From assembly GCF_051903065.1 (NCBI RefSeq), contig NZ_CP178438.1: a DNA stretch of 64,000 nucleotides; one strand, 5' to 3'. The notes under the pieces were generated by a model. The model saw nothing but the letters and a program-made list of their open reading frames with translations, did no database searches and was not told the origin of the DNA. Below, one piece after another: positions 2,756 through 60,778 of this stretch (position 1 is its first letter; every line of letters starts with the position of its first letter). Both the position numbers and the translations under genes were made by a program. Origin of the DNA: Escherichia coli. Its GTDB lineage: Bacteria; Pseudomonadota; Gammaproteobacteria; Enterobacterales; Enterobacteriaceae.

Positions 2756-2834
2756 TGCTTACTCCACACGATGAGATAATGACCGGCCCGTTCTACGCGG
2801 GCCGGGTCATAGCGGTAACAAAGGTTCCTTGGGG

Positions 2835-3854
2835 TTAGTGGCTGCTGCGCTCGTCCTTGCGTGCACGACCTAATAACGTCAATGCTGCCTCGCGCGCGTT
2901 TTTTCCGCAATATAATACTTGATAAATTTCCTCGGTTATTGGCATTTCAACGCCGAAGCGATGCGCCAGTTCGCGGACTTCTTTCGTATTGCGGTAGCCT
3001 TCCACCACCTGACCAATCTTCTCCTGCGCGCTTTGTACATCCATGCCCTGACCGAGCATCATGCCAAAACGGCGGTTACGCGACTGGTTGTCGGTACAGG
3101 TAAGCACAAGATCGCCCAGCCCCGCCATGCCCATAAAGGTGGCAGGATCGGCACCCAGCGCCGCGCCAAGACGCGACATTTCAGCCAGCCCACGGGTGAT
3201 CAGCGCCGTACGCGCATTCGCACCAAAACCGATACCGTCGGACATCCCCGCACCAATGGCAATGACGTTTTTCACCGCGCCGCCAAGCTGCACGCCAATG
3301 AAATCCGGATTGCTGTAAACGCGGAAACTTTTGCCGCAGTGCAGCAGCTGCTGGAGATCATCGGCAAAGGTCTGATCGGTCGAGGCCAGCGAAATAGCTG
3401 TCGGTAAACCTGCCGCCAGTTCTTTCGCAAACGTTGGGCCAGAGATAACCGCCAGCGGAATTTGATCGCCTAACGCCTCGCGCGCCACGTCCTGTAACAG
3501 ACGTCCGGTTTCCGCTTCCAGCCCTTTGGTCGCCCACACCAGACGCGCATCAGGACGCATCAGCGGTTTAATCTGGCGCAGCACTTCACCAAAGACATGG
3601 CTGGGTACGACGACAAGAATATTACGGCTGGCGGCCAACGCGGTGGCGAGATCGCTTTCAAGATGGAGCGTATCGGGAAAAGGCACATCGGGGAGAAACG
3701 CGGCGTTACAGCGGTCGCGTTCAAGCGTTGCGATATGTTCAGGGTCATGGCCCCAGAGGACAACCTCGTGGCCATTTCTTGCCAGGGTGATGGCAAGAGC
3801 GGTGCCGTACGAGCCGGCACCGATCACAGTCATTGAAGCATTACGTTGGTTCAT
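2835..3854 (-). CDS. gpsA: NAD(P)H-dependent glycerol-3-phosphate dehydrogenase
   Basis: 339-aa [40 protein letters not shown]...; Rossmann GxGxxG motif. Confidence 0.93.
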
Positions 3855-4321
3855 CAGGCATCCTGATGTTCTTCAGTACCTTCGCCAGCCTGCTGCTGCA
3901 AATAGTTCATGAACAGCGCATCGAAGTTAACCGGCGCAAGGTTCAGTTGCGGGAATGTACCGCGGGATACCATGCTGGTGATGCACTCACGAGCATACGG
4001 GAACAGAATGTTCGGGCAGTATGCGCCCAGGCAATGTGCCATCTGGGTGCCTTCGATACCCGCGATGGAGAAAATACCGCCCTGCTGAACTTCACACAGG
4101 AACGCGGTTTCTTCGCCCAGGGAGGCCGTTACGGTAACACGCAGTACCACTTCGTAAACGTCATCTGCCAGTTGAGTAGATGCCGTATCCAGATCAAGTT
4201 TAACTTCTGGCTGCCAATCTTTCTGGAAAACGTGCGGCGCGTTCGGCGCTTCGAAAGAAATATCCTTGGTATAAATACGTTGGATCTGGAAAGTCATTTC
4301 GGTGTTGTTTTGTTCTGACAT
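3854..4321 (-). CDS. secB: Protein-export chaperone SecB
   Basis: 155-aa [36 protein letters not shown]...; recognised as SecB. Confidence 0.95.
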
Positions 4322-4383
4322 GTGTAGAAAACCCTTAAGTGTTGTCCTTAAATACTGCGCAATGTAATGCCAACGTTCACACG

Positions 4384-4635
4384 TTATTTCAGCAGGGGAT
4401 CCAGTCCACCACGTGCATCCAATGCATACAAGTCATCACAGCCGCCAATGTGCTGTGCGTCAATAAAAATCTGGGGAACCGTGGTGCGACCGCTGCGTTT
4501 GATCATCTCTTCACGCTTGGCGGCGTTGCCATCGATCGGCAGCTCCTGGAAACTCACGCCCTTGCTGCTCAGCAGTGCTTTTGCACGATGGCAATACGGG
4601 CAGGTTTCTTTGGTATAGATTTCAACATTGGCCAT
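4384..4635 (-). CDS. grxC: Glutaredoxin 3
   Basis: 83-aa [25 protein letters not shown]... with CPYC active site. Confidence 0.93.
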
Positions 4636-4776
4636 AAATTAGCTCCTGTTTTTTTACCCTGAAATTTCATGTTGCAGGGCGGCAGCAAAATGGAGTGTCC
4701 CCAGAAGCTTATAACAATAAGTCGCTGGGGGCCTAATTGCAGCTAACGGCCTGCATCATGAAAGACGACAGGTAAA

Positions 4777-5208
4777 TTATTTGCCGCGCACCAGAGGCAA
4801 GTTTTCGCCAGCCCAGCCAGCAACGCCCTCTTTCAGCACGAATACTTGCGCAAAACCAGCTTTCGTCAGCGCGTTTGCAGGCTCCTGGCACTGCATGCCA
4901 GAACCGTCTACCACGATAACCGGTTTGTCTTTGTGCTTCTCAAGCTCACCAACATTGTTGGCTTTGATTTCGCTCGGCAACAGATTGATAGAACCTGCGA
5001 TATGGCCTTTACGGAAGTCATCACGCTGACGTAAATCCACAACCACAGCGTCTTCTTTGTTGATCAGACGCGTAGCTTCACCACGAGTAATCACCTTCAC
5101 TTTCGAGGTCAGGCTCTTAAACGTAGTCACAAGAACCGCCACCAGTAACGCGATCCAGGCGATACTCAGTATGGGATGACGGCCAACAAATTGCATAATT
5201 TCTTGCAT
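4777..5208 (-). CDS. yibN: Rhodanese-domain membrane protein
   Basis: ORF track gives 4777-5220; the likely start is the internal [15 protein letters not shown]..., giving a hydrophobic N-terminus followed by a rhodanese-like domain. Start is uncertain by about 4 codons. Confidence 0.8.
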
Positions 5209-15943: not shown

Positions 15944-17161
15944 ATGTTAACAGCCTCGCTGGCGCTACGTAATAAAGAAAGCTGGAAACCGTACTGGAAT
16001 AAAACGTTGGTATTCCTCTTTATTGCAACCTTTTTCCTTGATGGTATTACCCGTTATAAACACATCATATCCATACTAATGATTATTACGGTAATCTATC
16101 AAGTTTCTCGTGCTCCAGGAACATTTAAAGTACTCTATAAAAATAATCTTTTTTATAGTGTCCTGGTACTATCATTCATTCTTTTATATGCTACTTTCAT
16201 ATCACCTGATCTGAAAATCAGTTTTAAAGAATTCAGTAATACGGTGCTTAAAGGATTTTTGGCCTATAGTTTACTTATACCTGCATTATTAAAAGATGAA
16301 GATAATGAAAGCATTGGTAAAATTGTACTATACTCATTAGTTACCGGACTTGGCTTACGTTGTCTTGTTGAACTTATTCTTTATATTCAAGATTATAATA
16401 AAGGAATAATGCCATTTTCCACCTATGAACACCGTAGTATTTCCGATTCAATGGTGTTTCTGTTTCCAGCATTATTAAACCTTTGGCTTATCAAGAAAAC
16501 CTCTTATAAAATAGCATTCGTAATTTTTAGTGCAGTTTTCTTATTTCTGCTATTAGGAACGCTGTCTCGTGGTGCATGGCTGGCAGTATTCATAGTGACT
16601 CTGCTATGGTTAATCTTAAATCGTCAGTGGAAATTATTGATGCTGACTTCCATCGTTATTTCTGTTGCCGCAGCGGGTGTATTTACCTATAAAAGTGATC
16701 ATACCGGTAAAGACAGGCTTATTTATAAACTTCAACAGACCGACAGTTCTTATCGCTATACCAATGGTACACAAGGTACGGCGTGGACATTAATTATGGA
16801 AAATCCGCTTAAGGGATATGGCTACGGCGATGATATTTACCATGCAATATATAATAAGCGTGTCGTAGATTTTCCGTCATGGACATTCAGGCAATCAATT
16901 GGACCACACAACATTGTTTTGTCAATTTGGTTTGCAGCAGGTTTAGCTGGACTACTCGCTTTACTTTATCTGTATGGCTCTATTATCAAAGAGACAGCTA
17001 ATGCAACGTTTAAAACAGTTGTCGTCACTCCTTATAATGGTCAATTACTACTATTTTTAACGCTTGTAAGCTTTTATATTATTCGAGGTAACTTCGAGGA
17101 AGTTGATCTCAAACCAATTGGCTTGATTGTTGGTTTACTGTTAGCAATGCGGAATAAATAA
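15944..17161 (+). CDS. waaL: O-antigen ligase (Wzy_C family polytopic membrane protein)
   Basis: 405-aa, low-GC, highly hydrophobic ORF at the end of the hldD-waaFC operon. The sequence differs from the K-12 WaaL as I recall it; the start codon is uncertain. Confidence 0.8.
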   Translation: MLTASLALRNKESWKPYWNKTLVFLFIATFFLDGITRYKHIISILMIITVIYQVSRAPGTFKVLYKNNLFYSVLVLSFILLYATFISPDLKISFKEFSNTVLKGFLAYSLLIPALLKDEDNESIGKIVLYSLVTGLGLRCLVELILYIQDYNKGIMPFSTYEHRSISDSMVFLFPALLNLWLIKKTSYKIAFVIFSAVFLFLLLGTLSRGAWLAVFIVTLLWLILNRQWKLLMLTSIVISVAAAGVFTYKSDHTGKDRLIYKLQQTDSSYRYTNGTQGTAWTLIMENPLKGYGYGDDIYHAIYNKRVVDFPSWTFRQSIGPHNIVLSIWFAAGLAGLLALLYLYGSIIKETANATFKTVVVTPYNGQLLLFLTLVSFYIIRGNFEEVDLKPIGLIVGLLLAMRNK

Positions 17162-17167
17162 AAAAAA

Positions 17168-17197
17168 GCCTGCCTGACATTAAGTTCAGGCAGGCTC
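17168..17197. terminator. Bidirectional Rho-independent terminator between convergent waaL and the waaQ operon
   Basis: Perfect hairpin gcctgcctgac-attaagt-tcaggcaggc, preceded by an A-run and followed by T-rich sequence. Confidence 0.75.
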
Positions 17198-17214
17198 TTC
17201 AAATCCAATAATTT

Positions 17215-18357
17215 TTAACCAAACCAGTCTTGTATTTGTGCTTCAAAACGCTGAGTAACATGTTCCCAGCTATATTTTGAGAAAACAAAATTTCGGGCAT
17301 TTTTAGCAATTTGAGCTCTGTCAGCATCCGCCAAAACTCGCTTAATATCCGCGAGAATACTTTCAGATGTCATAGGCTCTGCAAGGTGATAGCCTGTAAT
17401 TCCTTCCAGAACAAACTCACTAATTCCACCTTTTTGACTGGCAAGTACTGGTTTACCTGCCGCCATCGCTTCAACAGCTACCATACAAAAAGCTTCTTCT
17501 ACCTGAGAAGGAACAACAACTAAATCTGCTAAACGGTAATAGTTATGCATCTGCTCTGGAGGCTGTCCACCCGCCATAATGCATTGCGCTCCAATAGCTT
17601 TCGCTGCATCCAGAACTTTTTTCTGATATTCAGCTTTTTCGCCTTTTTTACTGGCAAAAGGATCTCCGACAATCACCAGTTTGAGGTTATCTTGTATCTT
17701 ATTCAGCTGATTAAAAGCCTCCATAAGCATCAGGCAACCTTTATCTGGTGATATCCTTCCTGCAAATAATAACACGGTATCATTTGCATCAATGTTCAGT
17801 TTCTGCCTCAAATCTTCAGTATTATTTTGTTCATACGATTCAGAACAAAAACCATTAGGCACAATAGCAATATTTGCATCAGGCATTTTTTCCGAATAGA
17901 AATCGAAAAGAAACTGGCTAGGAACAATTATCTTTGCATTTTTGTCTAACTCACCTGGCTCGAAAGCATTATGAAGATGCATAACTAGCTGCGCCTGAGG
18001 GCTTCTGCTACGAATCTGTTTATACAGCTTCATGCTATTGTGGATAACAATAACAGAGTCTTTCGGATCAGTGTTTTTAGGTTGGGTATTTAAAATACGC
18101 TGAGAATATGGCACAGGATCAAGTCGAGTCCACTTTTGGAAAAGTCGTTTATAGACTCGACTAAAACCAATGTAGTGAATATCACAGTGATCATTTACTT
18201 TTGTGTAGGTTGGGTAACCTTCGTTTCGAATACAGGCGATAGTTACTGGAATCGAAAGTCTTTTTGCGACCTGATAAATCCATGTTTCAACCGCTGCAGC
18301 TCCTTTTGGCGGTATAGAAAATATTGGTGTGACGGTAAATATTATTTTTTTAATCAT
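17215..18357 (-). CDS. waaK: GT4-family glycosyltransferase, terminal outer-core transferase (WaaK-like, putative GlcNAc transferase)
   Basis: ORF 17215-18405; likely start MIKKIIFTVTPIF... (about 380 aa); C-terminal GT4 motif EAFCMVAVEAMAAGKPVLASQKGGISEFVLEGITGY. K-12 has a GT9 heptosyltransferase (WaaU) at this position, so the core type here is not K-12. Confidence 0.7.
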   Translation of the reverse strand: MIKKIIFTVTPIFSIPPKGAAAVETWIYQVAKRLSIPVTIACIRNEGYPTYTKVNDHCDIHYIGFSRVYKRLFQKWTRLDPVPYSQRILNTQPKNTDPKDSVIVIHNSMKLYKQIRSRSPQAQLVMHLHNAFEPGELDKNAKIIVPSQFLFDFYSEKMPDANIAIVPNGFCSESYEQNNTEDLRQKLNIDANDTVLLFAGRISPDKGCLMLMEAFNQLNKIQDNLKLVIVGDPFASKKGEKAEYQKKVLDAAKAIGAQCIMAGGQPPEQMHNYYRLADLVVVPSQVEEAFCMVAVEAMAAGKPVLASQKGGISEFVLEGITGYHLAEPMTSESILADIKRVLADADRAQIAKNARNFVFSKYSWEHVTQRFEAQIQDWFG

Positions 18358-18409
18358 TATTAGCCAACTCCAATATAATTTATAACACGTAATAAACACA
18401 TACAAAATA

Positions 18410-19219
18410 TTAGCTTATTTTTTCATAAACACACGGCTCTTCAATTTCGGATATTTTCATATAGGGAATAATATCATATTGAATTGCAGTATCGTCGGAT
18501 AAATTATAAATATTGATATCTTCTATATTTTCACGCATAAAACGGAAAAATGGTAAAATTTTGAATAAATCCCGAGTCAACTCTGAGGGCATAGGATTCT
18601 TATCTTCATCATAGAAACGCGAACAGCTACCCGTTAAATCAAGGCCTGAACAGATAATACGAGCATACTTCAGCGAATAGGCTATTTGGATTGCAGCAAA
18701 AGCAACGGTATGGCATGAACAATAACCGAGGTTAATATCCTTGCAAAAGCCAACCAGACGACCTTTTTTAGAAAAAGGTACAGAGATCAGGAGCTCTTTA
18801 TGAATTCGGCTCAAAATATTAAACTTGATCTTCTTGATCAATCCACCTTTTTCTCTGCGGTAAAATGAACGTAGTACCAGGCAGTTTTGAAGGATGTACC
18901 GCTTATCTTCTTCAGAAGCATGTTCATAAACGTCAACATTTACGATGGTATAACGACTTCTCTGGCTAAATTTATAAAAATCATCACGCCGTTGATGTAA
19001 AAAGCGAACATCGGTAAGTACATAAATATAGGGAATAATATTATGACTTAATAGATATTGTGCAGAACCATTGACAGCAATAACATCCCTTGTCTGCAGC
19101 ACTGACAATGGTGTTTTTTGCGATGTGGGGCCGGAAAGAAAAATAATAACATCATCAGCCGTTTTACTTTCTATCAGGTTTTCAACATCTTTTTTGTCAA
19201 TGTATCTAATATTCTTCAT
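18410..19219 (-). CDS. waaZ: LPS core biosynthesis protein WaaZ (KDO transferase-like)
   Basis: 269-aa low-GC ORF in the conserved waaY-waaZ position; assignment is by synteny more than motif. Confidence 0.65.
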   Translation of the reverse strand: MKNIRYIDKKDVENLIESKTADDVIIFLSGPTSQKTPLSVLQTRDVIAVNGSAQYLLSHNIIPYIYVLTDVRFLHQRRDDFYKFSQRSRYTIVNVDVYEHASEEDKRYILQNCLVLRSFYRREKGGLIKKIKFNILSRIHKELLISVPFSKKGRLVGFCKDINLGYCSCHTVAFAAIQIAYSLKYARIICSGLDLTGSCSRFYDEDKNPMPSELTRDLFKILPFFRFMRENIEDINIYNLSDDTAIQYDIIPYMKISEIEEPCVYEKIS

Positions 19220-19290
19220 GATAAACCTGTGAAATAAGAACTCCGCATAGAAATGTCCTGACGAAGACGTTTAAATGTAAGACTTTTACT

Positions 19291-19989
19291 TTATCGTGCT
19301 GGCTTCCCTTTCAAACGCCGCATAAGATTACGTATTTTTTTACGATAAACTAAAAGATAATAACCGAGATCTTTAACCTCATTCTTAATACCATAATGTC
19401 GCTCTAAATCAATACGATCTTTCGCTTTACGTTGTGCAGATGCCCGTTTTCCTGAAAGATCAATAATGCGTACTTCACCATTTTCAATAATAAAATTACC
19501 GCGGTGAGGATCACCAGATACCATACCGTGTTCGTGTAATGAACGAATTGATTGTTGAATTTTATTTTTTAGCGAATCATCAATATCGGGGATATCACAC
19601 AACTCTACGCCATCGATATATTCGATAAGCATGATATAAGTATGGACAAAACGTAATGTTTTCCGTTCTGCCAACAAATAAAAATCATTGAGAGAATGTA
19701 GCCCCTCGTTACGCACTTTTTGAGTTTGCTCAAAAAGGCGTTCATAATAATCTCCCTTTAAAAGAGATTTAAAGAAACGTTCGTTGCGTTTTACTTTAGG
19801 CGAAAAAACTTTAAGTATCAATTTACCGTAATCGGTATCAATAAGCATGACTTTTGTATCATCTATAGAACGAAAAACTTTGATGATATTAATATCATAA
19901 GAAAGAAAGTCATTTAATACATTGAGATACTTTGAGTTATTTTCATCGGTAAAAACAACTAAATCTTTGATTTTATTCTTCTGAATCAT
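19291..19989 (-). CDS. waaY: LPS core heptose(II) kinase
   Basis: 232-aa ORF with kinase-like HRGN motif (SGDPHRGNFI); position between waaZ and waaJ. Confidence 0.8.
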   Translation of the reverse strand: MIQKNKIKDLVVFTDENNSKYLNVLNDFLSYDINIIKVFRSIDDTKVMLIDTDYGKLILKVFSPKVKRNERFFKSLLKGDYYERLFEQTQKVRNEGLHSLNDFYLLAERKTLRFVHTYIMLIEYIDGVELCDIPDIDDSLKNKIQQSIRSLHEHGMVSGDPHRGNFIIENGEVRIIDLSGKRASAQRKAKDRIDLERHYGIKNEVKDLGYYLLVYRKKIRNLMRRLKGKPAR

Positions 19990-20006
19990 GTTAAACCAGT
20001 TAAATG

Positions 20007-21023
20007 TTATTTACGGTAATATTTTCGGCAAAGATAACACACTCCTGCAATGAGTCCTGAGATATAATGATGTTGCACTAACAGATGTTTATATCTTTTT
20101 TTGAATTCAATAATTGATTTTGCATCTCGTGGTGAGTCATCTTTCCAGGGGGATCTTTCTAAAGCTATTTTATAGTATTTTACCGATGGATAAATTGCCC
20201 ATTTGTGCCACGGCTTGGTGGCCCCAGTATAATGAATAAGAAGAGTATCCTCTTTTATCAACTCTTTATATTTTTGATGCGTTTTATCTTTTAACTCACT
20301 TTTTATTGTATATATAGTATTGAACTCACGTGGCAGGAATATTGTCATCCCTTTTAGTAGGACATTCATAACGTCCTGGTCAGGATACTTATAAATACTA
20401 TCTTTACTCATAAGAATAGACAGTGCTTTTTCGGTTAGTTTTGCTTCTGTCCATTTTTTTAGGTCTAAGTAAACGACACCAGAATTAAAATACTGCCCCC
20501 GAAGTTCAGGATCAGATAATCTGACTACCGCCTTTTCCTGCATTGGGTCTACATCCCTGACTACTGCAGCCACCGCTCCATTAAACTCTAAATGCAATAG
20601 TTGACTAATATCTCCCTTACAAACTACATCTGCATCAAGATAAAGCAAACGATCAAGAGTTAAACCCAATAATTGAAATGCAAATAAACGGAAGTACATT
20701 GCTCTTGACCAGACCTGTGTACAAGGCAAGCACTGGAGCTTATCAGTGTTAATTCTATATAACGTGATTCTTAATTGGTATTGCTCTGCAAGCTTTGCAA
20801 CTTTTTGAAAAAAAGCATCATTATAAACATCAGCAATAATATAAAAATCAAGATTAATATGTCGATTATTTAGGACAATTGATGTGATGGAAACACCTAC
20901 ACCATCAAGATAATTAGCATCGACACCATAGGCAACATTTAAACATTCACAAGTATTTATATTAGCCAGCCGAAAATCCCAGGCTTTAACTTTATCTATC
21001 TCTATGGCAGGAAATGAGTCCAC
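20007..21023 (-). CDS. waaJ: GT8-family LPS outer-core 1,2-glycosyltransferase
   Basis: 338-aa ORF with GT8 motifs (YLDADVVC, FNSGVVYLDLKKW, DQDVMNVLL, HYTGATKPW). Confidence 0.8.
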   Translation of the reverse strand: MDSFPAIEIDKVKAWDFRLANINTCECLNVAYGVDANYLDGVGVSITSIVLNNRHINLDFYIIADVYNDAFFQKVAKLAEQYQLRITLYRINTDKLQCLPCTQVWSRAMYFRLFAFQLLGLTLDRLLYLDADVVCKGDISQLLHLEFNGAVAAVVRDVDPMQEKAVVRLSDPELRGQYFNSGVVYLDLKKWTEAKLTEKALSILMSKDSIYKYPDQDVMNVLLKGMTIFLPREFNTIYTIKSELKDKTHQKYKELIKEDTLLIHYTGATKPWHKWAIYPSVKYYKIALERSPWKDDSPRDAKSIIEFKKRYKHLLVQHHYISGLIAGVCYLCRKYYRK

Positions 21024-21062
21024 AATGCTACCCTTATATCATTACTTTATAGTTTCCCAGTT

Positions 21063-22082
21063 TTAATGCTTTATCTTTTCAATAAAATAAAAAAGATAGT
21101 TGCTAAACCCTTTTAGATATCTATGTTTTTTAAGCATATGTTTTGCGCTATATCTTAATTGATTGCTATTATTCGGTTTCAGCAACGCCGTATTCTTCCA
21201 TGGCGAAGCATTTTTTGCCTCCATAAATGCTTGTGATACAGGATAATCCCAGGCCCAATCATGCCAGGGCTTGGTTGGCCCGATATAATGGATAAAAATA
21301 GTATCGTTGGTAATTGGGTTTATAAAGTTATCTTTTAGTTGATAATTTAAGCTAAACTGGGTGTTATATTTAATATCAGCGAAAATAAGTTTATCTGCCA
21401 GCAACATATTTAATACATCCTGATCAGGATGTGTTATTTTTTTGATTATTTCTGGCTCATTTAGCATTGCAATGGCTCGTGTAGAAACCTGCTGAGCCGC
21501 CCATTTGGCAGTATTAATCAATAAAAAACCGGAGTTAAAGTAACCTTTAGCAATTCCCGCAACACCTAACGAATGGGCGCGTTTTTCCCACCAGTCAGCT
21601 TGCCCTTCAGAAACAACCATTGCGACTTTATCGTCAGGAAATGAGAATTTAATTAGTGGCTCAATAGTCCCCTGACAAATGATATCTGCATCCAGATAAA
21701 GGACTTTAGCCGCCTTATTAATAAAGTAATCTGCAATAACAAAACGGAAATATATTGCATGAGTCCAGTTCTTTGTGCTAGGCAATGAGCGTAGTCGGTC
21801 ACCATTAATCAGATATATTTTTATTCTGGTTTTATACTGTAACGCTAGGGCATCAAAATACTTACGATCATCATCACCAAAATAATCAGTAAAAATGTGG
21901 AAACACAACCGACTTCCTTCATTATACTTTAATATTGAAGCAATCGAAATTCCGCAACCAAATAGAAAGTTTTTGTCAGTTCCATAAGCGATGTCCAGAC
22001 AAAGATTTTCCGTTTCTACTTTATGATTATAATCAATAACTGAATTTAGAAACTCAGTTTCCTGGAATAATACCTGCTGCAT
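21063..22082 (-). CDS. waaI: GT8-family LPS outer-core 1,3-glycosyltransferase
   Basis: 339-aa ORF with GT8 motifs (YLDADIIC, FNSGFLLINTAKW, DQDVLNMLL, HYIGPTKPW); also known as waaO. Confidence 0.8.
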   Translation of the reverse strand: MQQVLFQETEFLNSVIDYNHKVETENLCLDIAYGTDKNFLFGCGISIASILKYNEGSRLCFHIFTDYFGDDDRKYFDALALQYKTRIKIYLINGDRLRSLPSTKNWTHAIYFRFVIADYFINKAAKVLYLDADIICQGTIEPLIKFSFPDDKVAMVVSEGQADWWEKRAHSLGVAGIAKGYFNSGFLLINTAKWAAQQVSTRAIAMLNEPEIIKKITHPDQDVLNMLLADKLIFADIKYNTQFSLNYQLKDNFINPITNDTIFIHYIGPTKPWHDWAWDYPVSQAFMEAKNASPWKNTALLKPNNSNQLRYSAKHMLKKHRYLKGFSNYLFYFIEKIKH

Positions 22083-23161
22083 TATTTCCTCCGGGAAATA
22101 GCAGAAATAATTATATTATGTAATCTATCGTAATACTTCAATTGATAAAACTTATCGATCGACGCAGGAATTTTTTCATGTTCGATATGAATTTCACCTG
22201 CTATATATTTATTTAGAAGAGTTACAAAACCAGCAATATCTCCCGGTTGATACAGATGGCCATTGACATCAGATTGAATAATGTCAGCAGGCCCGGAGAC
22301 ACAATCGGCACTAATACAAGGAATCCCCCATGATAAGGCTTCAAGCAGGGTCATTGGGAAACCTTCAAAAGATGACGTGAGCAGTAACGCACTCACTTTT
22401 TTAATATCTTGCTGGACCAATTCCCAGGGATGTTGTTGCCAACCATACCAGTCAATTCGATTATCAATATTTAGTTCTCTACTATAAGCCTGGCATTTTT
22501 CGAAATCGGAACCATCACCCAATACATGGAGTTTCCAGTTACCTTGCGCTTGTGATAAGCCATCAAACAGGTCTTTAACCCTCTTCTGGCCTTCAAATTT
22601 CATACGCCCAACATAAATGAATGTTGCCGTTTCGCCTTCCCCGGGTGCAGGAATGACTGAATTTTTCGCCTCGACGGGATTAAAAATAACGTTTATTGTC
22701 GATTCTGGTACACCCCGGCTAATCATTTGCCGTTTAATACCAGAGCTGATGGCTAAATGATAGTCGGCACAGGTGATATATTCAGCATGTTTTTTATGAT
22801 CTAAAGAAAAATGCGGCCATGAAAATACAGGTACATCAATCCCCGATTTTTTACGAGCTTTGGACGCATACAAACACGAGATCACGTCAATACAAATAAC
22901 AACATCTGGCTGATAATCCTGAAGCCATTTGCTTAAAGCATGAATATGTTTCGCGCGACGCAAAAAACCTAAGCGAATATTGGAAAATGAACAAGAGTAC
23001 TTAATATCTTCCAGCCACCCCTTATCCATTTTGTCATTACGACAAAAGAAAAACATTTCACTTTGGATATGTTGTTGCCTGAAGGTAGTAATAACATCAC
23101 GAATGACTGTTTCCATGCCGCCAAAACCAGAAACAGCTTCGCCAATAAAGGCTATTTTCAT
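22082..23161 (-). CDS. waaB: GT4-family LPS 1,6-galactosyltransferase
   Basis: 359-aa ORF MKIAFIGEAVSGFGGMETV... with C-terminal GT4 motif SSFEGFPMTLLEALSWGIPCIS. Confidence 0.85.
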   Translation of the reverse strand: MKIAFIGEAVSGFGGMETVIRDVITTFRQQHIQSEMFFFCRNDKMDKGWLEDIKYSCSFSNIRLGFLRRAKHIHALSKWLQDYQPDVVICIDVISCLYASKARKKSGIDVPVFSWPHFSLDHKKHAEYITCADYHLAISSGIKRQMISRGVPESTINVIFNPVEAKNSVIPAPGEGETATFIYVGRMKFEGQKRVKDLFDGLSQAQGNWKLHVLGDGSDFEKCQAYSRELNIDNRIDWYGWQQHPWELVQQDIKKVSALLLTSSFEGFPMTLLEALSWGIPCISADCVSGPADIIQSDVNGHLYQPGDIAGFVTLLNKYIAGEIHIEHEKIPASIDKFYQLKYYDRLHNIIISAISRRK

Positions 23162-23174
23162 AATTACATTCCAG

Positions 23175-24155
23175 CTAAATATTTAAGCAAAACAATTTAA
23201 CAAGTAAATACTTATAATAATAAGAAATGGCTTTCCAATATTTTCCTTCTAACCAAAAAACTTTAGACTTTAACCTAATCTCACTTGATGATGGAGCTAG
23301 TTTTCTTTTATAGTTCTTCCATGGGGAATTTGAAAAATAATGATCAAAATTTTGCGCTCTAAATATTTTGTACCATGGTTTATTCGGAGTTACATAATGC
23401 ATTATAATTGTGTTTGGCAAGTTTTTTTGCTCTTCATCACATCGTACTGACAATGTTGTCTTATTATTGTACTTGTTATTAAGGTAATGTACTCGTCCAT
23501 TAAGTAAAATATTAAGCACATCCTGATCTGCATATCTATATACTTTCCCACTGTTGATCATCTCTAAAGCTTTTTGTGTTATATTATGTTTTTTCCATGC
23601 GCTGGTATTAATAAGCATAACCCCGGCATTAAAATAATCCACAAACTCAATGCCATAATCTAATTTTTTTACACGTTCTTGCATTTCTGGTGAGTCTGGA
23701 ATTACACATGCAATATTAGCATTTAAATTATAATCAACCAGTTCATCTAAATGGCTATTACATATGACATCACAGTCAAGATAAAGTATATTATTTATTT
23801 TATCATCAATAACTTCTGGGATTAAGAAACGTAAACATGTTGATAAAGGAATACCAAGAACTAATGTATCCGGATTAATGTCAAATTTATCAGTTATATA
23901 ATATACAGATATTGATGTATGAGGACCTTCTAGCTCGTAAAAAGCTGAACACTCTTTTTCTTCTATGCCTGATATAAGAAGGTGAAAATGAAGGTTAATA
24001 TGACTATTGTTGGATATAATTGAATATAATGCAACGCCTGCTGGCATTATGAATTCATAATCAAAGCATAGTGCAATATGTAAATGTTTAACATATGACA
24101 GTTCGTTTTGGAATAAATCTTGCCTCTTAGCAACGAAATTTCTATATTTCAACAA
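23175..24155 (-). CDS. GT8-like glycosyltransferase occupying the waaS position (very AT-rich)
   Basis: 326-aa ORF with GT8 motifs (YLDCDVICN, FNAGVMLINTSAW, DQDVLNILL, HYVTPNKPW), between waaP and waaB. I cannot confirm from memory whether it is orthologous to K-12 WaaS. Confidence 0.6.
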   Translation of the reverse strand: MLKYRNFVAKRQDLFQNELSYVKHLHIALCFDYEFIMPAGVALYSIISNNSHINLHFHLLISGIEEKECSAFYELEGPHTSISVYYITDKFDINPDTLVLGIPLSTCLRFLIPEVIDDKINNILYLDCDVICNSHLDELVDYNLNANIACVIPDSPEMQERVKKLDYGIEFVDYFNAGVMLINTSAWKKHNITQKALEMINSGKVYRYADQDVLNILLNGRVHYLNNKYNNKTTLSVRCDEEQKNLPNTIIMHYVTPNKPWYKIFRAQNFDHYFSNSPWKNYKRKLAPSSSEIRLKSKVFWLEGKYWKAISYYYKYLLVKLFCLNI

Positions 24156-24187
24156 TTTTAGAATCCCTTACTGTAATAAAATATTAT

Positions 24188-24985
24188 TTACAAGTTTTTT
24201 CTTATTGTTCTTTCTTCTATTTTTTTTGCTTTAATTTTTGCCTTTTTAAGTAAATCAGTCTCAAGTTTAAAAATATCGCGTAAAGGCATCCCAAAATAAA
24301 CCTTCATAAATCGCCAGATATCTCTCTGCGTCAGACCAATATTCATTGATGAGAAATACAAACCAATCAAATCTTTATCGCGCCAACGACGTGGAACGCG
24401 CGTGCGAAGCTGCGCCCGGTGCAGGTCAATTACCGAAATTTTTAACTCCTCTTCCTTACCGGAAAAAGGCAAGTGCAGCAGGAAATGACAGATATAACAG
24501 TCACGGTGGTTAATGCCCGCAGCATGCATATCGCGCACCATCGTCGCGACACGCTTAATAAGCATACGCTTTACGCGAACATCTGGTGGGTTGGTCGCCC
24601 AGTCAGCACAGTAATCTTCCAGACTGATGGTTGGTGTCAGATCTTCGGTAATAATAAATGAAGTTCTGGTCAGCGGATTCATGCCTTTTTCGCCAAATGC
24701 CACCCCATACATAGTATCAACGCCGACATCCCGCAGTCGATGAATCGCATTCCATTCGCGGTCTGCGCCTAATACTGGCATCCGCAATGAGAGTAAATTT
24801 TTGATTATCTCTTTCAGAGTCGTGCCGCGATGCCATTTGAGAAAATAGCTTTTGCCCGCCATTTCAAAGCGCAGAGTACGGCGAGTTTCCAGTTCACGAA
24901 ATACCTCACCCTGCAAGGTTTTAACTTCCTCAAAAGGATCTTTACCGCGCCATAACGTGGCAAACGGCTCTTTAAGTTCAACCAT
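24188..24985 (-). CDS. waaP: LPS core heptose(I) kinase
   Basis: Likely start [21 protein letters not shown]...; kinase-like fold; conserved position. Confidence 0.9.
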
Positions 24986-53576: not shown

Positions 53577-54959
53577 TTAGTTCTGCACTTCTTGAGAGGT
53601 GAATTGTTGCTGGCAACGGCGTTTGCCCTGGGCCAGCTGTTCCATAACGGTTTTCAGATTGTGCGTCGTGAGTGAGTAGTAGCGTTTAGCGATAATCGCG
53701 CTCAGCAAATAACAGATCGCCGGAACAATCGTGAATAGCGCAATAATGATGCTAATCGTGGCGCTGTTCTGCGCTTTTTCTGCCGCATCATATCCGCCAT
53801 AAGCCAGCATCCAGCCGATAAGAGCGCCGCCGAAGGCCAACCCCAGTTTGAGCACAAACAGCGTGCCAGCAAAACTGATCCCGGTCAGGCGTTTACCATT
53901 GCACCACTCGCCGTAGTCGACGGTATCGGACATCATTACCCACTGGATAGGTGTCACCAGTTGATGCAACACACCAATCACGAAGATGAAGACAAACATA
54001 GTGATGCTGGCCTGCATGGGAACAAAGAACATCGCGAGGCTAATCACTGCCAGCAGGGCGTTCGTCCACCAGAAAATAGTGACTTTACATTTCCAGTCGG
54101 TCAGCGGTTTTGCCAGAGCGGAACCAATCAGGTTACCCACGCAATAAGTGGTGAGAAAAGCGACAAACACTTCCGGCGTACCCAAAATCCATGTGACGTA
54201 ATACATCATCGCTCCACCGCGTACGCACACCGCCAGGATATTGAAAATGGTTAGTAAACCGACAATCCGCCACTGGTCGTTTTGCCAGATATCACGTAAA
54301 TCTTCCCGCATAGACGTCGTTGTAGGTGGTGCTTCAACGCGTTCTTTAGTGGTGAAGAAACAGAATGCCAGCATCATGAATGCCACCACGGAAAGGACCG
54401 CGATACCACCCTGGAAACCGAGTGGTTTATTATCACCACCAATTAAATTAACCAGTGGCATCATCAGAACCGTAGAAAGCATGCCTCCCGCGGTCGCCAG
54501 CACAAAACGCCAGGATTGCAGCGAGATACGCTGAGTCGGGTCATTGGTGATTACACCACCCAATGCGCAGTAAGGGATATTGACGACGGTATAAAGTAAG
54601 GTAAGTAGGGTGTAAGTAATTGCTGCATAAATCATTTTTCCGTTCATACTGAGATCTGGCGTGCTATAGGCCAGTACACAGACGATCCCAAATGGCAGTG
54701 CGCCAAACAGTACCCACGGACGAAATTTACCCCAGCGAGAGCGCGTTCGATCGGCCAACAACCCCATGCAAGGATCGGAAATCGCATCCAGTGCACGAGC
54801 GACCAAAAACATGGTTCCGACAAATCCGGCAGGAATGCCAAAAATATCGGTATAAAAGAACATCATATATAACATTACGTTATCGAAAATAATGTGGCTG
54901 GCGGCGTCTCCCATGCCATAACCAATTTTCTCTTTAACGGACAACACTTCACTCTTCAT
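53577..54959 (-). CDS. yicJ: GPH-family sugar:cation symporter
   Basis: 460-aa polytopic ORF MKSEVLSVKEKIGYGMGDAASHIIFDNVMLYMMFFYTDIFGIPAGFVG...; cotranscribed with yicI. Confidence 0.9.
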   Translation of the reverse strand: MKSEVLSVKEKIGYGMGDAASHIIFDNVMLYMMFFYTDIFGIPAGFVGTMFLVARALDAISDPCMGLLADRTRSRWGKFRPWVLFGALPFGIVCVLAYSTPDLSMNGKMIYAAITYTLLTLLYTVVNIPYCALGGVITNDPTQRISLQSWRFVLATAGGMLSTVLMMPLVNLIGGDNKPLGFQGGIAVLSVVAFMMLAFCFFTTKERVEAPPTTTSMREDLRDIWQNDQWRIVGLLTIFNILAVCVRGGAMMYYVTWILGTPEVFVAFLTTYCVGNLIGSALAKPLTDWKCKVTIFWWTNALLAVISLAMFFVPMQASITMFVFIFVIGVLHQLVTPIQWVMMSDTVDYGEWCNGKRLTGISFAGTLFVLKLGLAFGGALIGWMLAYGGYDAAEKAQNSATISIIIALFTIVPAICYLLSAIIAKRYYSLTTHNLKTVMEQLAQGKRRCQQQFTSQEVQN

Positions 54960-55251
54960 CTACTTTTCCTTGATGCTATAGGGGTGCTGAGACCGATAAC
55001 GCATTTTGTAAACCATCCCTGTGAGAGCGAATATTCCGATATCTGGTTATTAATTTATGATTCTTGTTTTATGTGATCGTGGTAGCGTTAATTCCGCTCA
55101 TATGTCATTGTAAAATATGGATTTTATATGAACTATAATGCTTTCGTGATAATACGCTGCGTGTATTAGGCGGAAAAAACTGATCTGGGGGATGTAGAAA
55201 CTCAAGGAAGTAGCTATAATGCGCCCCGCCTCCATGTAGCAATCGAGGCGC

Positions 55252-55346
55252 GGAAGATCGTCGTCTCCGGTGAGGCGGCTGGACTTCAAATCCAGTTGGG
55301 GCCGCCAGCGGTCCCGGGCAGGTTCGACTCCTGTGATCTTCCGCCA
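55252..55346 (+). tRNA. selC: tRNA-Sec (selenocysteine, anticodon UCA)
   Basis: 95-nt sequence ggaagatcgtcgtctccggtgaggcggctggacttcaaatccagttggggccgccagcggtcccgggcaggttcgactcctgtgatcttccgcca, with long variable arm, UCA anticodon and encoded CCA. Confidence 0.95.
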
Positions 55347-55645
55347 GTTTACCTCTTCTGAACTCTCCCAATGTCAATAAATCTCTTCTAATCCCTTGTA
55401 TATCAGTATTTATTTGTATCCAGAGGTCAACCTACTTCACCCCGTATCAAGTTTCTTTTGGGGGTACTTTAGGGGGTGTTATTTCCTATTGAAATACCAG
55501 CACCCCCATAATAGGAAAAATGTGATATATAACAACGGCTTTTAACAACATCTTTGTTATACAAGGGGTGTATTGGGGGTATCAGGTTAGTTACTGGCAG
55601 AAATCCCCCTCAGGAACATGAATTCATCAAAAGCCGGAGGATGTC

Positions 55646-56437
55646 ATGGCATTAACCGATATCAAAGTGAAAACCGCAAAACCCAAAGACAAACCCTATA
55701 AGCTTGCTGATGGCGGCGGTATGTATCTACTGATTAACACTAATGGTTCTAAATACTGGCGCATGAAGTACCGCTTTGCTGGTAAAGAAAAGATGCTTTC
55801 TATTGGCGTATACCCCGATGTAACGCTAGCCGATGCTCGCGAGAAACGCAGTGAAGCCAGGAAACTCCTCGCTGCTGGAGGCGATCCAGGGGAGGCAAAA
55901 AAGGAAGAAAAAATCGCGCAGCAAATGAGTCTGCAAAATACGTTCGAGGCTATTGCTCGCGAATGGCACCAGTCAAAAGCCGATCGGTGGTCATTACGCT
56001 ATCGTGATGAAATCATTGATACCTTTGAAAAAGACATTTTTCCCTACATTGGCAAGCGCCCTATTGCCGAAATCAAACCAATGGAGTTACTGGAAGCACT
56101 GCGTAAAATGGAAAAACGTGGAGCTCTGGAGAAAATGCGCAAGGTCCGCCAGCGCTGTGGTGAGGTGTTCCGCTATGCAATTGTTACTGGCCGGGCAGAC
56201 TATAACCCAGCCCCCGATCTTGCCAGTGCTTTAGCTACACCGAAAAAAGTACATTTTCCCTTTCTTACTGCTAATGAACTTCCCCACTTCCTCAACGATC
56301 TGGCGGGTTATACCGGAAGTATAATCACTAAGACAGCTACTCAGATCATTATGTTAACCGGCGTACGAACACAAGAACTGCGTTTTGCACGCTGGGAAGA
56401 TATCGATTTTGAGACAAAATTGGGCTTTGTTGAATAA
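55646..56437 (+). pseudogene. Truncated P4-type tyrosine integrase (N-terminal arm-binding and core-binding part only)
   Basis: 263-aa ORF MALTDIKVKTAKPKDKPYKLADGGGMYLLINTNGSKYWRMKYRFAGKEKMLSIGVYPDV... (typical P4-family integrase N-terminus), 300 bp downstream of selC. Native sequence ends at 56422; the frame runs 4 codons into the IS left inverted repeat and stops. The catalytic R..HxxR..Y domain is absent. Confidence 0.85.
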
Positions 56438-57479
56438 ATCGAACTTTTGCTGAGTTGAAGGATCAGATCACGTATCTTCCCGACAACGCAGACCGTTCCG
56501 TGGCAAAGCAAAAGTTCAAAATCACCAACTGGCCCACCTACAATAAAGCCCTCATCAACCGTGGCTCCATAACTTTCTGGCTGGATGATGAAGCTATTCA
56601 GGCCTGGTATGAGTCAGCAACACCTTCTTCACGAGGCAGACCTCAGCGCTATTCTGACCTTGCCATCACGACTGTGCTGGTCATTAAACGCGTATTCAGG
56701 CTGACCCTGCGCGCTGCGCAGGGCTTTATTGATTCCATTTTTTCTCTGATGAACGTTCCGCTACGCTGCCCGGATTACAGCTGTGTCAGCAGGCGGGCAA
56801 AGTCGGTTAATGTCAGTTTCAAAACGCCCACCCGGGGTGAAATCGCACACCTGGTAATTGATTCCACCGGGCTGAAGGTCTTCGGTGAAGGCGAGTGGAA
56901 AGTCAAAAAGCATGGCCAGGAACGCCGCCGTATCTGGCGTAAGCTGCATCTCGCCGTTGACAGTAAAACACATGAAATCATCTGCGCTGACCTGTCGCTG
57001 AACAACGTTACGGACTCAGAGGCCTTCCCCGGGTTAATCCGGCAAACCCACCGGAAAATCAGGTCAGCCGCCGCCGATGGCGCTTACGATACCCGGCTAT
57101 GTCACGATGAACTGCGGCGTAAGAAAATCAGCGCGCTTATCCCTCCCCGAAAAGGTGCGGGTTACTGGCCCGGTGAATATGCAGACCGTAACCGTGCAGT
57201 GGCTAATCAGCGAATGACCGGGAGTAATGCGCGGTGGAAATGGACAACAGATTACAACCGTCGCTCGATAGCGGAAACGGCGATGTACCGGGTAAAACAG
57301 CTGTTCGGGGGTTCACTGACACTGCGTGACTACGATGGTCAGGTTGCAGAGGCTATGGCCCTGGTACGAGCGCTGAACAAAATGACGAAAGCAGGTATGC
57401 CTGAAAGCGTGCGTATTGCCTGAAAACACAACCCGCTACGGGGGAGACTTACCCGAAATCTGATTTATTCAACAAAGCC
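56423..57479 (+). mobile_element. IS903-group (IS5-family) insertion sequence, 1057 bp, intact 18-bp terminal inverted repeats, no target-site duplication
   Basis: Left end ggctttgttgaataaatc (56423-56440) and right end gatttattcaacaaagcc (57462-57479) are exact inverted repeats. The left-end sequence matches the IS903 end of Tn903 as I recall it. Flanking 9-mers acaaaattg and ggatttcat are not identical. Confidence 0.88.
56455..57423 (+). CDS. IS903-family DDE transposase
   Basis: 322-aa ORF (TTG start in the track) ...YLPDNADRSVAKQKFKITNWPTYNKALINRGSITFWLDD...; it fills the IS between the inverted repeats. The true start may be downstream. Confidence 0.85.
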   Translation: MKDQITYLPDNADRSVAKQKFKITNWPTYNKALINRGSITFWLDDEAIQAWYESATPSSRGRPQRYSDLAITTVLVIKRVFRLTLRAAQGFIDSIFSLMNVPLRCPDYSCVSRRAKSVNVSFKTPTRGEIAHLVIDSTGLKVFGEGEWKVKKHGQERRRIWRKLHLAVDSKTHEIICADLSLNNVTDSEAFPGLIRQTHRKIRSAAADGAYDTRLCHDELRRKKISALIPPRKGAGYWPGEYADRNRAVANQRMTGSNARWKWTTDYNRRSIAETAMYRVKQLFGGSLTLRDYDGQVAEAMALVRALNKMTKAGMPESVRIA

Positions 57480-57770
57480 GGATTTCATCTGAACAACGGC
57501 CCACAGGCCGATCGACTTGCCGACCTGGAAAGAATGCTGCATCTGTTCAGCGGCAAACCGATCCCCGACAACCGGGAAAACATCACTATTCATCTGAATG
57601 AGCACATCCGGTCTGTTCAGGGTAAAGAGTGCTATGAAGATGAAATGTTCAGCATCAGATACTTTAAGAAGGGCTCCGCGCACATCACGTTCAGGAAACC
57701 AGAACTGGTTGATCGGCTAAATGATATTATAGCCAGACACTATCCGGAAATGTTACCTTCACAATAGAGT
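57480..57770 (+). pseudogene. Orphan 3' gene fragment (C-terminal 96 codons of an unidentified protein) abutting the IS right end
   Basis: The frame is open from the first base after the IS right repeat (GFHLNNGPQADRLADLERMLHLFSGKPIPDNRENITIHLNEHIRSVQGKECYEDEMFSIRYFKKGSAHITFRKPELVDRLNDIIARHYPEMLPSQ) with no start or ribosome-binding context. Family not recognised. Confidence 0.5.
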
Positions 57771-57899
57771 ACTAAGAATTGATTCAATTATGTATTTTAG
57801 CTTCATTCCTTCATGCAAAATCATTTGGGGGTTCTTATGGGGGTTACTCATTTATCCAACACATACAAATTATTTAAGATCAATGCATTAATACTTATA

Positions 57900-57921
57900 T
57901 TCGACTCCTGTGATCTCCGCC
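57900..57921 (+). repeat. Imperfect direct repeat of the selC 3' end (attR-like island boundary)
   Basis: tcgactcctgtgatctccgcca matches selC 55324-55346 (tcgactcctgtgatcttccgcca) apart from a single T deletion; the following ~50 nt also resemble the sequence just downstream of selC. Confidence 0.8.
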
Positions 57922-58559
57922 AAAATGCCTCTCCTGACGTTCTCCAACCCCTTGTAATACTGTCAATCCAGATATTTTCTACTGCTCAATATTCAATCGG
58001 CTTCAGGAATACCTGGTCTAAGGTTTTGTGATGGACGATGAGCGGCTGAAGAATCCGCCTGTCGGTTCTTCTGTCCTCGAACGCATCCGCGATATTCACG
58101 CCAGTATGCGCCGTGTTTATTTGCAGGTGATTTGCCCCCCTGCTGACTCTCAGCCAACTGTATCGCCATTAAGGTGAAGATGTTGTTTTACTCGCCCCAG
58201 AACACCCTTTTTTATACGACTATTCTATTTCTTTAACCGCTGGCGAAAAAAAACTGACTATAAACTTCACCAATAATCAGACTGCCATCAAGATTAATTT
58301 GTTCATTTAATATATCAAATCAACTTGTTTTATTTTTACTATCAAAAATAGCTCATTGCCTTACTATAATTAATATATAAATTCGGTAATTAATTCTTAA
58401 CATGCTTTTACTAATAATCTCAATTGCTGGCCCTATAATATTGCGCTAGCATTGCTTTCTGGTTGTATCAGCGATACTCAAAAATTCTTAATACAATACT
58501 CATTCGACTGGTACTTATTTGTAACTCAGTTATATTTTTTCGCCCGGTGATTCAGAAGA

Positions 58560-59744
58560 ATGCAAAAAACGGCTACCACTCCATCAAAAATACTTGATCT
58601 CACTGCCGCGGCATTTTTACTTGTCGCCTTTCTGACGGGTATTGCGGGCGCTCTTCAGACTCCTACCCTAAGTATATTCCTCGCAGATGAACTGAAAGCC
58701 CGTCCTATAATGGTAGGTTTTTTCTTCACCGGTAGCGCTATTATGGGAATTCTGGTCAGTCAATTTCTGGCAAGGCACTCCGATAAACAAGGCGACCGTA
58801 AATTACTGATTCTGCTATGTTGCTTATTTGGAGTGCTGGCCTGCACGCTTTTTGCGTGGAATCGCAACTACTTCATTCTCCTCTCAACGGGCGTACTTCT
58901 GAGTAGTTTTGCTTCCACCGCAAACCCGCAAATGTTCGCCCTCGCCCGTGAACACGCCGACAGAACAGGCCGTGAGACGGTCATGTTCAGTACATTTTTA
59001 CGTGCTCAGATCTCGCTTGCCTGGGTTATCGGGCCACCGCTCGCTTATGAACTGGCAATGGGATTTAGTTTTAAAGTGATGTATCTCACCGCTGCCATCG
59101 CATTTGTTGTTTGCGGACTGATAGTCTGGTTGTTTTTGCCATCAATACAAAGAAATATTCCTGTCGTTACCCAACCCGTAGAAATTTTACCCTCCACCCA
59201 CAGGAAGCGGGATACGCGGCTACTTTTTGTGGTCTGTTCAATGATGTGGGCGGCGAATAATCTCTACATGATAAATATGCCGCTATTTATTATTGATGAA
59301 CTGCATCTAACCGATAAACTGGCTGGAGAAATGATTGGTATCGCTGCCGGTCTGGAAATTCCGATGATGTTAATCGCAGGCTATTACATGAAACGTATTG
59401 GCAAGCGACTATTAATGCTCATTGCTATCGTGAGTGGAATGTGTTTTTACGCCAGCGTACTCATGGCGACGACTCCGGCGGTTGAGCTGGAATTGCAAAT
59501 TCTTAATGCCATCTTCCTTGGTATTCTCTGTGGTATCGGCATGCTTTATTTTCAGGACTTGATGCCTGAAAAAATAGGCTCTGCGACAACGTTATATGCA
59601 AATACTTCACGCGTCGGCTGGATTATCGCCGGCTCTGTTGACGGAATTATGGTTGAAATCTGGAGCTACCATGCGTTGTTCTGGCTGGCGATAGGGATGT
59701 TGGGTATTGCGATGATTTGCCTGCTGTTTATTAAAGATATTTAG
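58560..59744 (+). CDS. setC: Sugar efflux transporter (MFS, SET family)
   Basis: 394-aa ORF MQKTATTPSKILDLTAAAFLLVAFLTGIAGALQTPTLSIFLADELKARP...; clear similarity to SetA/SetB as I recall them. Confidence 0.88.
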   Translation: MQKTATTPSKILDLTAAAFLLVAFLTGIAGALQTPTLSIFLADELKARPIMVGFFFTGSAIMGILVSQFLARHSDKQGDRKLLILLCCLFGVLACTLFAWNRNYFILLSTGVLLSSFASTANPQMFALAREHADRTGRETVMFSTFLRAQISLAWVIGPPLAYELAMGFSFKVMYLTAAIAFVVCGLIVWLFLPSIQRNIPVVTQPVEILPSTHRKRDTRLLFVVCSMMWAANNLYMINMPLFIIDELHLTDKLAGEMIGIAAGLEIPMMLIAGYYMKRIGKRLLMLIAIVSGMCFYASVLMATTPAVELELQILNAIFLGILCGIGMLYFQDLMPEKIGSATTLYANTSRVGWIIAGSVDGIMVEIWSYHALFWLAIGMLGIAMICLLFIKDI

Positions 59745-59854
59745 CTCACCAGTCTGGGCTAAGAAAAATCGGCGTGGCGCAAACAGAGCCATCCTCGCCA
59801 TTTTTGCTATCATGCCTGCATACATAAACGACAAAACAGTATGCAGAGGGAAAA

Positions 59855-60778
59855 ATGGGTTCCACCAGAAAGGGGATGCTGAACGTTCTGATTGCCGCCG
59901 TGTTGTGGGGAAGTTCAGGGGTCTGCGCGCAATACATCATGGAGCAAAGCCAGATGTCGTCGCAGTTTTTGACTATGACGCGTTTGATATTCGCCGGTTT
60001 GATTCTACTGACGCTGTCATTTGTTCATGGCGATAAAATCTTTTCTATTATTAACAATCATAAAGATGCCATTAGCCTGCTGATTTTTTCCGTGGTTGGC
60101 GCGCTAACTGTACAGCTCACTTTTTTGCTAACCATCGAAAAATCGAACGCAGCCACGGCAACGGTGCTGCAATTCCTCTCACCGACGATTATCGTCGCCT
60201 GGTTCTCACTGGTGCGTAAATCGCGCCCGGGCATTCTGGTTTTCTGCGCTATTTTGACATCGCTGGTCGGGACTTTTTTATTGGTGACACACGGTAATCC
60301 GACGTCATTATCGATCTCTCCTGCCGCGTTGTTCTGGGGCATTGCCTCGGCATTTGCTGCTGCATTCTATACCACCTATCCCTCAACGCTAATTGCCCGC
60401 TATGGCACGTTACCAGTCGTCGGCTGGAGTATGCTGATTGGCGGTCTGATTCTGTTGCCTTTTTATGCCAGACAAGGAACAAACTTTGTCGTTAACGGCA
60501 GTTTGATTCTGGCGTTTTTTTATTTGGTGGTCATTGGTACGTCCCTGACATTTAGTCTGTACCTGAAAGGAGCACAATTAATTGGCGGTCCAAAAGCCAG
60601 CATTTTGAGCTGTGCAGAACCATTAAGTAGCGCGCTACTCTCTTTGCTGTTGCTGGGGATCACGTTCACATTACCGGACTGGCTGGGAACGCTGCTGATT
60701 CTGTCATCGGTGATTTTGATTTCAATGGATTCCCGTCGCCGCGCCAGAAAAATAAATCGTCCGGCGCGGCATAAGTGA
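59855..60778 (+). CDS. yicL: EamA/DMT-family inner membrane transporter
   Basis: 307-aa polytopic [36 protein letters not shown]...; two EamA-like halves. Confidence 0.85.

Follow-up and report, generated by a model that had tools for sequence, protein, structure and literature searches.

The selC-setC spacer of Escherichia coli: an attachment-site flank, a RhuM-family relic and an AT-rich setC upstream region probably bound by H-NS

The interval from 57922 to 58559 of the window, by which we mean the whole 64-kb stretch of DNA that was analysed, is the E. coli selC-setC spacer. ARAGORN and Rfam both place one tRNA-Sec gene (selC) upstream of it, and the sugar efflux gene setC follows. The features of the locus are as follows.

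55252-55346, tRNA-Sec gene (selC)
55646-56437, truncated tyrosine integrase of the P4 type, 263 aa
56455-57423, IS903B transposase (IS5 family), directly after the integrase
57534-57767, C-terminal end of a DUF4942 gene (last 77 codons only)
57900-57922, plus strand, attR, a 23-nt direct repeat, partial and one T short, of 55324-55346 at the 3' end of selC
57923-58000, plus strand, selC-distal flank of 78 bp with no recognisable feature, identical to K-12
58001-58177, plus strand, RhuM-family pseudogene relic, truncated at both ends (yicT, b4653 in K-12)
58178-58410, no strand assigned, distal AT-rich block that makes up most of a published promoter island, fast-evolving
58411-58559, plus strand, conserved setC-proximal segment of 149 bp with 3 substitution sites
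58434-58439, plus strand, TATAAT, a perfect -10 hexamer preceded by C and accompanied by a poor -35 (hexamer scan)
58560-59744, plus strand, setC, SET-family sugar efflux transporter of 394 aa (ORF and annotation)

A first-pass annotation of this DNA had placed an island junction at the 5' end of the interval, and this was borne out. Position 57922 is the terminal A of the partial copy of the selC 3' end, and colinearity with K-12 begins at that copy (57900-57922). Since the attR copy ends at 57922 and the ATG of setC stands at 58560, the interval is exactly the DNA that runs from the right junction of the islet to setC. Island junctions at tRNA genes are recognised by a distal direct repeat of the tRNA 3' end, and such a repeat is present at 57900-57922; in other strains, the same junction point is abutted by different islands. 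The attR copy is the right boundary of a degraded islet inserted at selC. The T that is missing from it falls at 57915-57916, compared with 55339-55341 in selC (gtgatc-tccgcca versus gtgatcttccgcca), and is retained at the same junction in strain M9682-C1, which carries another island there.

The islet itself (55646-57767), with its truncated integrase, IS903B transposase and DUF4942 fragment, appears to be a CP4-like island that was reduced by an IS-associated deletion. At full length and 100% identity, it was found in only 2 of 5426 genomes, those of strains 23CRST027 and 23CRST031. The right arm of the island also contains a sigma-70-like site on the plus strand, TTAAGA-16-TATATT at 57874-57901, which points into attR and the spacer and could drive read-through toward setC in island-carrying strains.

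Aligned with its counterpart in K-12 MG1655, the spacer proved colinear throughout, selC 3' end to setC ATG, and its 638 bp showed just a single 1-base indel, an additional A in the run of A at 58246-58253. Among 5426 complete E. coli genomes, 3618 have at least 80% of the spacer, with an identity of 93.5-100%, and it occurs behind an unoccupied selC as well as behind various islands; the other strains with an unoccupied selC site have it at 95.6-99.8% identity. The first-pass annotation had made its reading depend on conservation with the selC-setC spacer of island-free strains, and since the spacer is conserved there, island or not, the reading held on this point. With the selC 3' end and the setC start as its bounds and near-identity to the island-free reference, the interval has what defines the orthologous locus, and it is the ordinary selC-setC spacer of setC-carrying E. 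coli strains. With the islet in between, the complete selC of the window is not adjacent to the spacer, which starts instead at a partial selC copy without one T.

By GC content, the spacer consists of three parts, namely, 57923-58000 (41%), 58001-58177 (52%) and 58178-58559 (30.9%), while the whole window has 49.2%. The earlier description of the entire interval as AT-rich therefore applies to 58178-58559 and not to the two parts before it. Elsewhere in the 64-kb window, the only comparably AT-rich stretches are blocks with a GC content of at most 32% at 15956-24400.

The first part, the flank at 57923-58000, has only its first 15 bp in common with LF82, a strain that lacks setC. It is also among the most variable parts of the spacer, with 11.5% substitution sites in 14 strains. 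In strain GN03139, a 15-bp deletion removes 57984-57998, just upstream of the RhuM relic. We considered the flank as the left arm of an old island and rejected this, as its alignment to the attL arm of the window scored 18, compared with 15.9 ± 2.1 for shuffled sequences, which is not significant.

The second part is the relic of a RhuM-family gene. By tblastn, positions 58001-58162 align with the intact RhuM of LF82 (345 aa), with 63% identity over residues 121-185 and an E value of 9e-20 against a 1-kb subject. The reading frame of the relic is interrupted by a stop codon and has lost 8 codons to a deletion, and whether it is also frameshifted at 58079 and 58135 depends on the strain (14 compared). 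PGAP labels it "rhuM ... internal stop; incomplete" in every strain inspected, and it is likewise a pseudogene in K-12. Protein similarity to intact RhuM and loss of coding integrity, the two marks of a RhuM pseudogene, are thus both present. The density of substitutions in the relic (7.3%) was indistinguishable from that at setC third codon positions (8.9%); the relic is a dead gene that evolves neutrally. It fills about a quarter of the interval (160-180 bp). Only five ORFs of at least 30 aa overlap the interval and none of them is a credible gene, in agreement with the first-pass annotation, whose untranslated spacer stands insofar as no functional ORF is present but had missed the rhuM/yicT pseudogene. 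The rhuM gene of Salmonella SPI-3 is also located at selC.

The third part precedes setC and shares its distribution. Of the complete E. coli genomes, 32% lack both setC and its leader, the AT-rich block; the block was found in 3674 of the 5426 genomes, always as a single copy and only on chromosomes. Plasmid copies were considered and rejected, the sole high-identity matches of this kind being records of megabase size, apparently chromosomes that were entered as plasmids. Our data suggest that setC is dispensable in some lineages. The gene is frameshifted in strain EC77 (locus 1683-2866) and has a later annotated start in CFSAN027350 (locus 1967-3121).

The closest paralogue of setC is setB, with about 72% nucleotide identity. 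Outside E. coli, no close setC ortholog appeared among the relatives listed, one GTDB representative genome being taken per species; these relatives were about 65-72% identical to setC, the best reaching about 72%. Since E. coli setB is itself about 72% identical to setC, the relatives from other species are most likely setB-type loci. No tRNA-Sec was found near any of 60 SetC-like loci scanned in other species, the spacer was common to none of 80, and the DNA upstream of such loci had a median GC content of 44%, compared with 31% for the setC leader. Absence from 32% of E. coli genomes, combined with the lack of a close ortholog among the relatives listed from other species, makes setC and its leader look like an E. 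coli-specific accessory unit.

LF82 has no setC and carries other DNA in its place. Its homology to the K-12 type extends for 15 bp beyond selC and is then lost until 29 bp before yicL (window 59826). The selC-yicL region of LF82 (locus 2590-4912) harbors the intact rhuM in a 1.2-kb mini-islet whose arms resemble the ends of the island in the window, with local-alignment scores of 39 (12 ± 2 in shuffles) and 94 (16 ± 2 in shuffles). The same region contains a degenerate selC repeat at about 3790-3815, a second and heavily decayed rhuM relic at 3893-4096 (residues 166-245, E value of 2e-12) and a gene for a 165-aa hypothetical protein with 33% GC. We infer an order of events in which setC and its leader were laid over an older rhuM-bearing element. 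The selC hotspot of "island-free" strains is thus not pristine, since it still contains the wreck of an older element.

The 382 bp from 58178 to 58559, with their 30.9% GC, rank in the lowest 2.2% of the 382-bp windows across the 64 kb, and the promoter-island part of the block (58215-58546) has 29.5% GC. As is characteristic of H-NS-silenced regions, the AT content is high (30.9% GC, compared with 49.2% for the whole window). Two properties that the first-pass annotation had ascribed to the DNA, short poly-A/T tracts and curvature, did not withstand comparison with shuffled sequences. Tracts of at least 4 A/T bases numbered 9, compared with 7.1 ± 2.3 in composition-matched shuffles, and no 10-11 bp phasing of AA/TT was detected in the AT-rich block (shuffle fraction of 0.30). 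Having neither an excess of tracts nor phasing, the block offers no sequence support for intrinsic curvature. The high-affinity H-NS motif TCGATAAATT was matched in the block only with 2 mismatches. H-NS targets often have curvature or nucleation motifs, neither of which was thus recovered here, but do not require them. The block contains 12 -10-like hexamers, which places it in the top 2.2% of window tiles, but 10.3 ± 3.6 are expected from its composition (shuffles). Scanning for the sigma-70 consensus gave no plus-strand promoter in the block and no enrichment.

The region upstream of setC splits cleanly into a constrained proximal segment of 149 bp and an unconstrained, AT-rich distal part. 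In 14 strains that were picked to span the range of identity, and that are non-random and mutually related, the share of substitution sites was 2.0% for the proximal segment, as opposed to 8.9% for the third codon positions of setC and 13.3% for 58178-58410, the distal block, a few calls near the A-run being alignment artefacts. By Fisher's test, the proximal segment differed both from setC third positions (p = 0.004) and from the distal block (p = 7e-5), while the substitution rate of the distal block was not below neutral. Judging from sequence and conservation, 58411-58559 probably holds the core promoter or promoters, the 5' UTR and the ribosome-binding site of setC. A Shine-Dalgarno-like GGTGA lies 8 nt before the ATG. 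As a setC promoter, possibly one of the sigma-S type, the TATAAT at 58434-58439 is the strongest candidate.

In K-12, from which all H-NS and SELEX evidence considered here comes, the H-NS evidence by way of a secondary compilation, the spacer has been covered by several published data sets. Among the 78 "promoter islands" of U00096.2 is the entry 3834632_331, selC(+)/setC(+) (Panyukov & Ozoline 2013, PMC3661553 Table 1). It is marked "A", that is, bound by H-NS "according to all studies" compiled (Grainger, Kahramanoglou, Oshima), and setC is flagged as foreign, after Nakamura et al. (PMC3661553). As a class, promoter islands have a very low transcript output (PMC3661553). Genomic SELEX located an RpoS-holoenzyme peak at 3834856 (U00096.2; intensity of 22.6) and an RpoH-holoenzyme peak at 3834954 (intensity of 3.4), both in the spacer (Shimada et al. 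2017, PMC5493296).

Using an offset of 1977 bp from U00096.2 to NC_000913.3, with the extra length assumed to lie entirely upstream of the locus, we mapped the promoter island to NC_000913.3 3836609-3836939, corresponding to about 58215-58546 of the window, and the RpoS and RpoH peaks to about 58440 and 58538, respectively. The offset reflects the length of U00096.3, which we take to be 1977 bp greater than that of U00096.2. At the resolution of genomic SELEX (about 100 bp), the coincidence between the RpoS peak and TATAAT is only suggestive. The view that the interval is an H-NS target, which the first-pass annotation had offered for checking against published data, agrees with the listing of the K-12 counterpart of 58215-58546 (PMC3661553 Table 1). 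Its other proposal, a native setC promoter region, was upheld in one half: a promoter role fits the RpoS peak and the conserved 149 bp, but "native" holds only with the qualification that setC is absent from 32% of genomes.

The phenotypes of setC in K-12 bear on how strongly the gene might be silenced. Deletion of setC in MG1655 raises intracellular arabinose and overexpression lowers it (Koita & Rao 2012, PMC3429515), and strong overexpression is toxic (PMC3429515). As deletion has a phenotype, setC must be functional, is expressed at some level and is not fully off, so that silencing would be partial at most; toxicity upon overexpression, in turn, provides a reason for tight control.

Taken together, these data led us to the following proposal. 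The flank starts at attR, the selC-derived repeat where the degraded islet ends, and the yicT fragment would be left over from an older element that once lay beside selC. The 382-bp block of about 31% GC would travel with setC as its upstream region. Owing to its AT-richness, the block would present many -10-like hexamers that bind RNA polymerase and would be a preferred platform for H-NS; its distal part (58178-58410) is likely an H-NS binding platform. H-NS on the AT-rich block would most likely keep setC transcription low, as in xenogeneic silencing, while the real promoter or promoters, the 5' UTR and the ribosome-binding site would lie in the conserved 149 bp, with TATAAT at 58434-58439 perhaps read by sigma-S RNA polymerase. 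Since the distal block is not conserved beyond neutral expectation, any role of H-NS there would depend on composition rather than on specific sites; H-NS silencing being composition-dependent, weak conservation of sites is no argument against it. The anatomy of the spacer alone, with its attR flank, relic and AT-rich block, appears to us practically certain. The complete proposal, in which attR flank and relic are joined to an H-NS-bound regulatory region of setC with a proximal promoter, we regard as probable. That H-NS actually represses setC, as the reported occupancy, the foreign-like composition and the toxicity of overexpression would suggest, we favor only slightly over the contrary.

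The main competing explanation concerns this last step. Binding of H-NS could be incidental, the distal block being neutral filler and setC depending on a weak or condition-specific (e.g., sigma-S-dependent) proximal promoter, with no meaningful silencing. A distal block that evolves at or above the neutral rate next to a constrained proximal segment would be expected in that case, as would a hexamer density explained by composition, a phenotype of the K-12 setC deletion (PMC3429515) and the binding of RpoS holoenzyme to the spacer without other factors (PMC5493296). Occupancy of the K-12 counterpart in all compiled ChIP studies and the very low transcript levels of promoter islands (PMC3661553) speak against it, and we consider incidental binding rather unlikely, though a serious contender. 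A simpler picture would be that of a plain native promoter region, a uniform, AT-rich and curved noncoding spacer that is ancestral to E. coli and contains nothing else. Colinearity with K-12, the wide spread of the spacer in E. coli and its AT-rich 3' part are all compatible with this picture, but about a quarter of the interval is a RhuM relic with 52% GC, curvature has no sequence evidence in its favor, and setC with its leader is missing from 32% of E. coli, replaced in LF82 and devoid of a close ortholog in the scan of other species. In its strict form, the picture is refuted by the yicT/rhuM relic and the presence/absence polymorphism, and overall, we hold it to be improbable.

Two further possibilities would place an additional element inside the spacer. 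One is an unannotated small gene or RNA regulator, such as a small ORF, sRNA or cis-acting leader. Small ORFs are present at 58028-58177 (49 aa), 58452-58550 (32 aa) and 58463-58597 (44 aa), and a leader is conceivable in the conserved proximal segment. However, the 49-aa ORF is broken by strain-variable frameshifts, the current K-12 annotation, which includes recent small proteins such as yicU, has only yicT here, and no annotated feature lies under the AT-rich block among the 12 matches listed from 3674 genomes. A hidden RNA or leader structure was rejected, as Rfam gave no family at E ≤ 1 besides tRNA-Sec over 54000-60000 and the fold of the putative 5' UTR (58446-58580) was no better than that of shuffles (z = -0.66). 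A hidden gene or RNA of any kind is thus highly improbable. Alternatively, the AT-rich block could be what remains of a mobile element, with an imperfect inverted repeat of 23 nt (58229-58251/58535-58557) as its borders; this repeat is 74% complementary and almost exactly brackets the published promoter island. Against this, the perfect 10-nt core of the repeat is expected by chance in 2 kb, its left arm has four strain-variable positions, neither a transposase nor a target-site duplication turned up, and all 3674 carrier genomes have the block as a single, chromosomal copy. With a repeat at chance level and arms that vary among strains, a mobile-element origin was rejected, and we give it even less credence than a hidden gene.

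Beyond the H-NS-bound regulatory region that we propose, the locus could be read as a layered fossil of traffic through the selC hotspot. An ancestral element with rhuM would have been located beside selC, and its 3' part would have been replaced in one E. coli lineage by a setB-like setC with its own leader, whereas LF82-like lineages would have kept another piece of the old rhuM and later gained the rhuM mini-islet. The distal leader would be retained as a composition-dependent "sink" of H-NS and RNA polymerase, so that a toxic transporter is hardly made, and the conserved 149 bp would contain a sigma-S-type promoter able to evade this silencing during stress or stationary phase. As a complete scenario, this is speculative and, in our estimate, unlikely. 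Because the region upstream of setC is cleanly divided into a constrained part of 149 bp and an unconstrained distal part, it offers a convenient natural test case for the silencing of promoter islands by composition alone.

For annotation, the interval should be labeled as attR, followed by the yicT/rhuM pseudogene and then the setC promoter region, with no new feature. Annotations or publications already cover yicT as a pseudogene, the attachment site, the promoter island and its binding by H-NS.

The closest known counterpart is the spacer of K-12 MG1655 (NC_000913.3 3836317-3836952), with which the window shares the order selC 3' end, yicT/rhuM relic, AT-rich leader, setC and yicL. Unlike in K-12, the complete selC and the spacer are about 2.6 kb apart in the window, the islet with its truncated integrase, IS903B and DUF4942 fragment lying between them. 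In LF82, a 345-aa "virulence RhuM family protein" is encoded directly downstream of selC; the relic described here keeps about 19% of that gene, with about 75% nucleotide identity. With xenogeneic silencing by H-NS, the spacer shares an AT-rich block upstream of a variably present, E. coli-specific accessory gene as well as the reported occupancy, but it differs from typical H-NS-silenced regions in having no strong nucleation motif or A-tract phasing and in that setC is at least weakly expressed in K-12. The class of promoter islands is defined by PlatProm scores, as stretches of 300 bp or more in which predicted transcription start points are extremely dense, and membership of the window rests on the near-identical K-12 entry, the density of hexamers here being at the level set by composition. 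Like the K-12 promoter islands (entry 3834632_331), 58215-58546 is about 70% AT, dense in -10-like hexamers and adjacent to a gene flagged as foreign, setC being the horizontally acquired neighbor that is expected of a promoter island.
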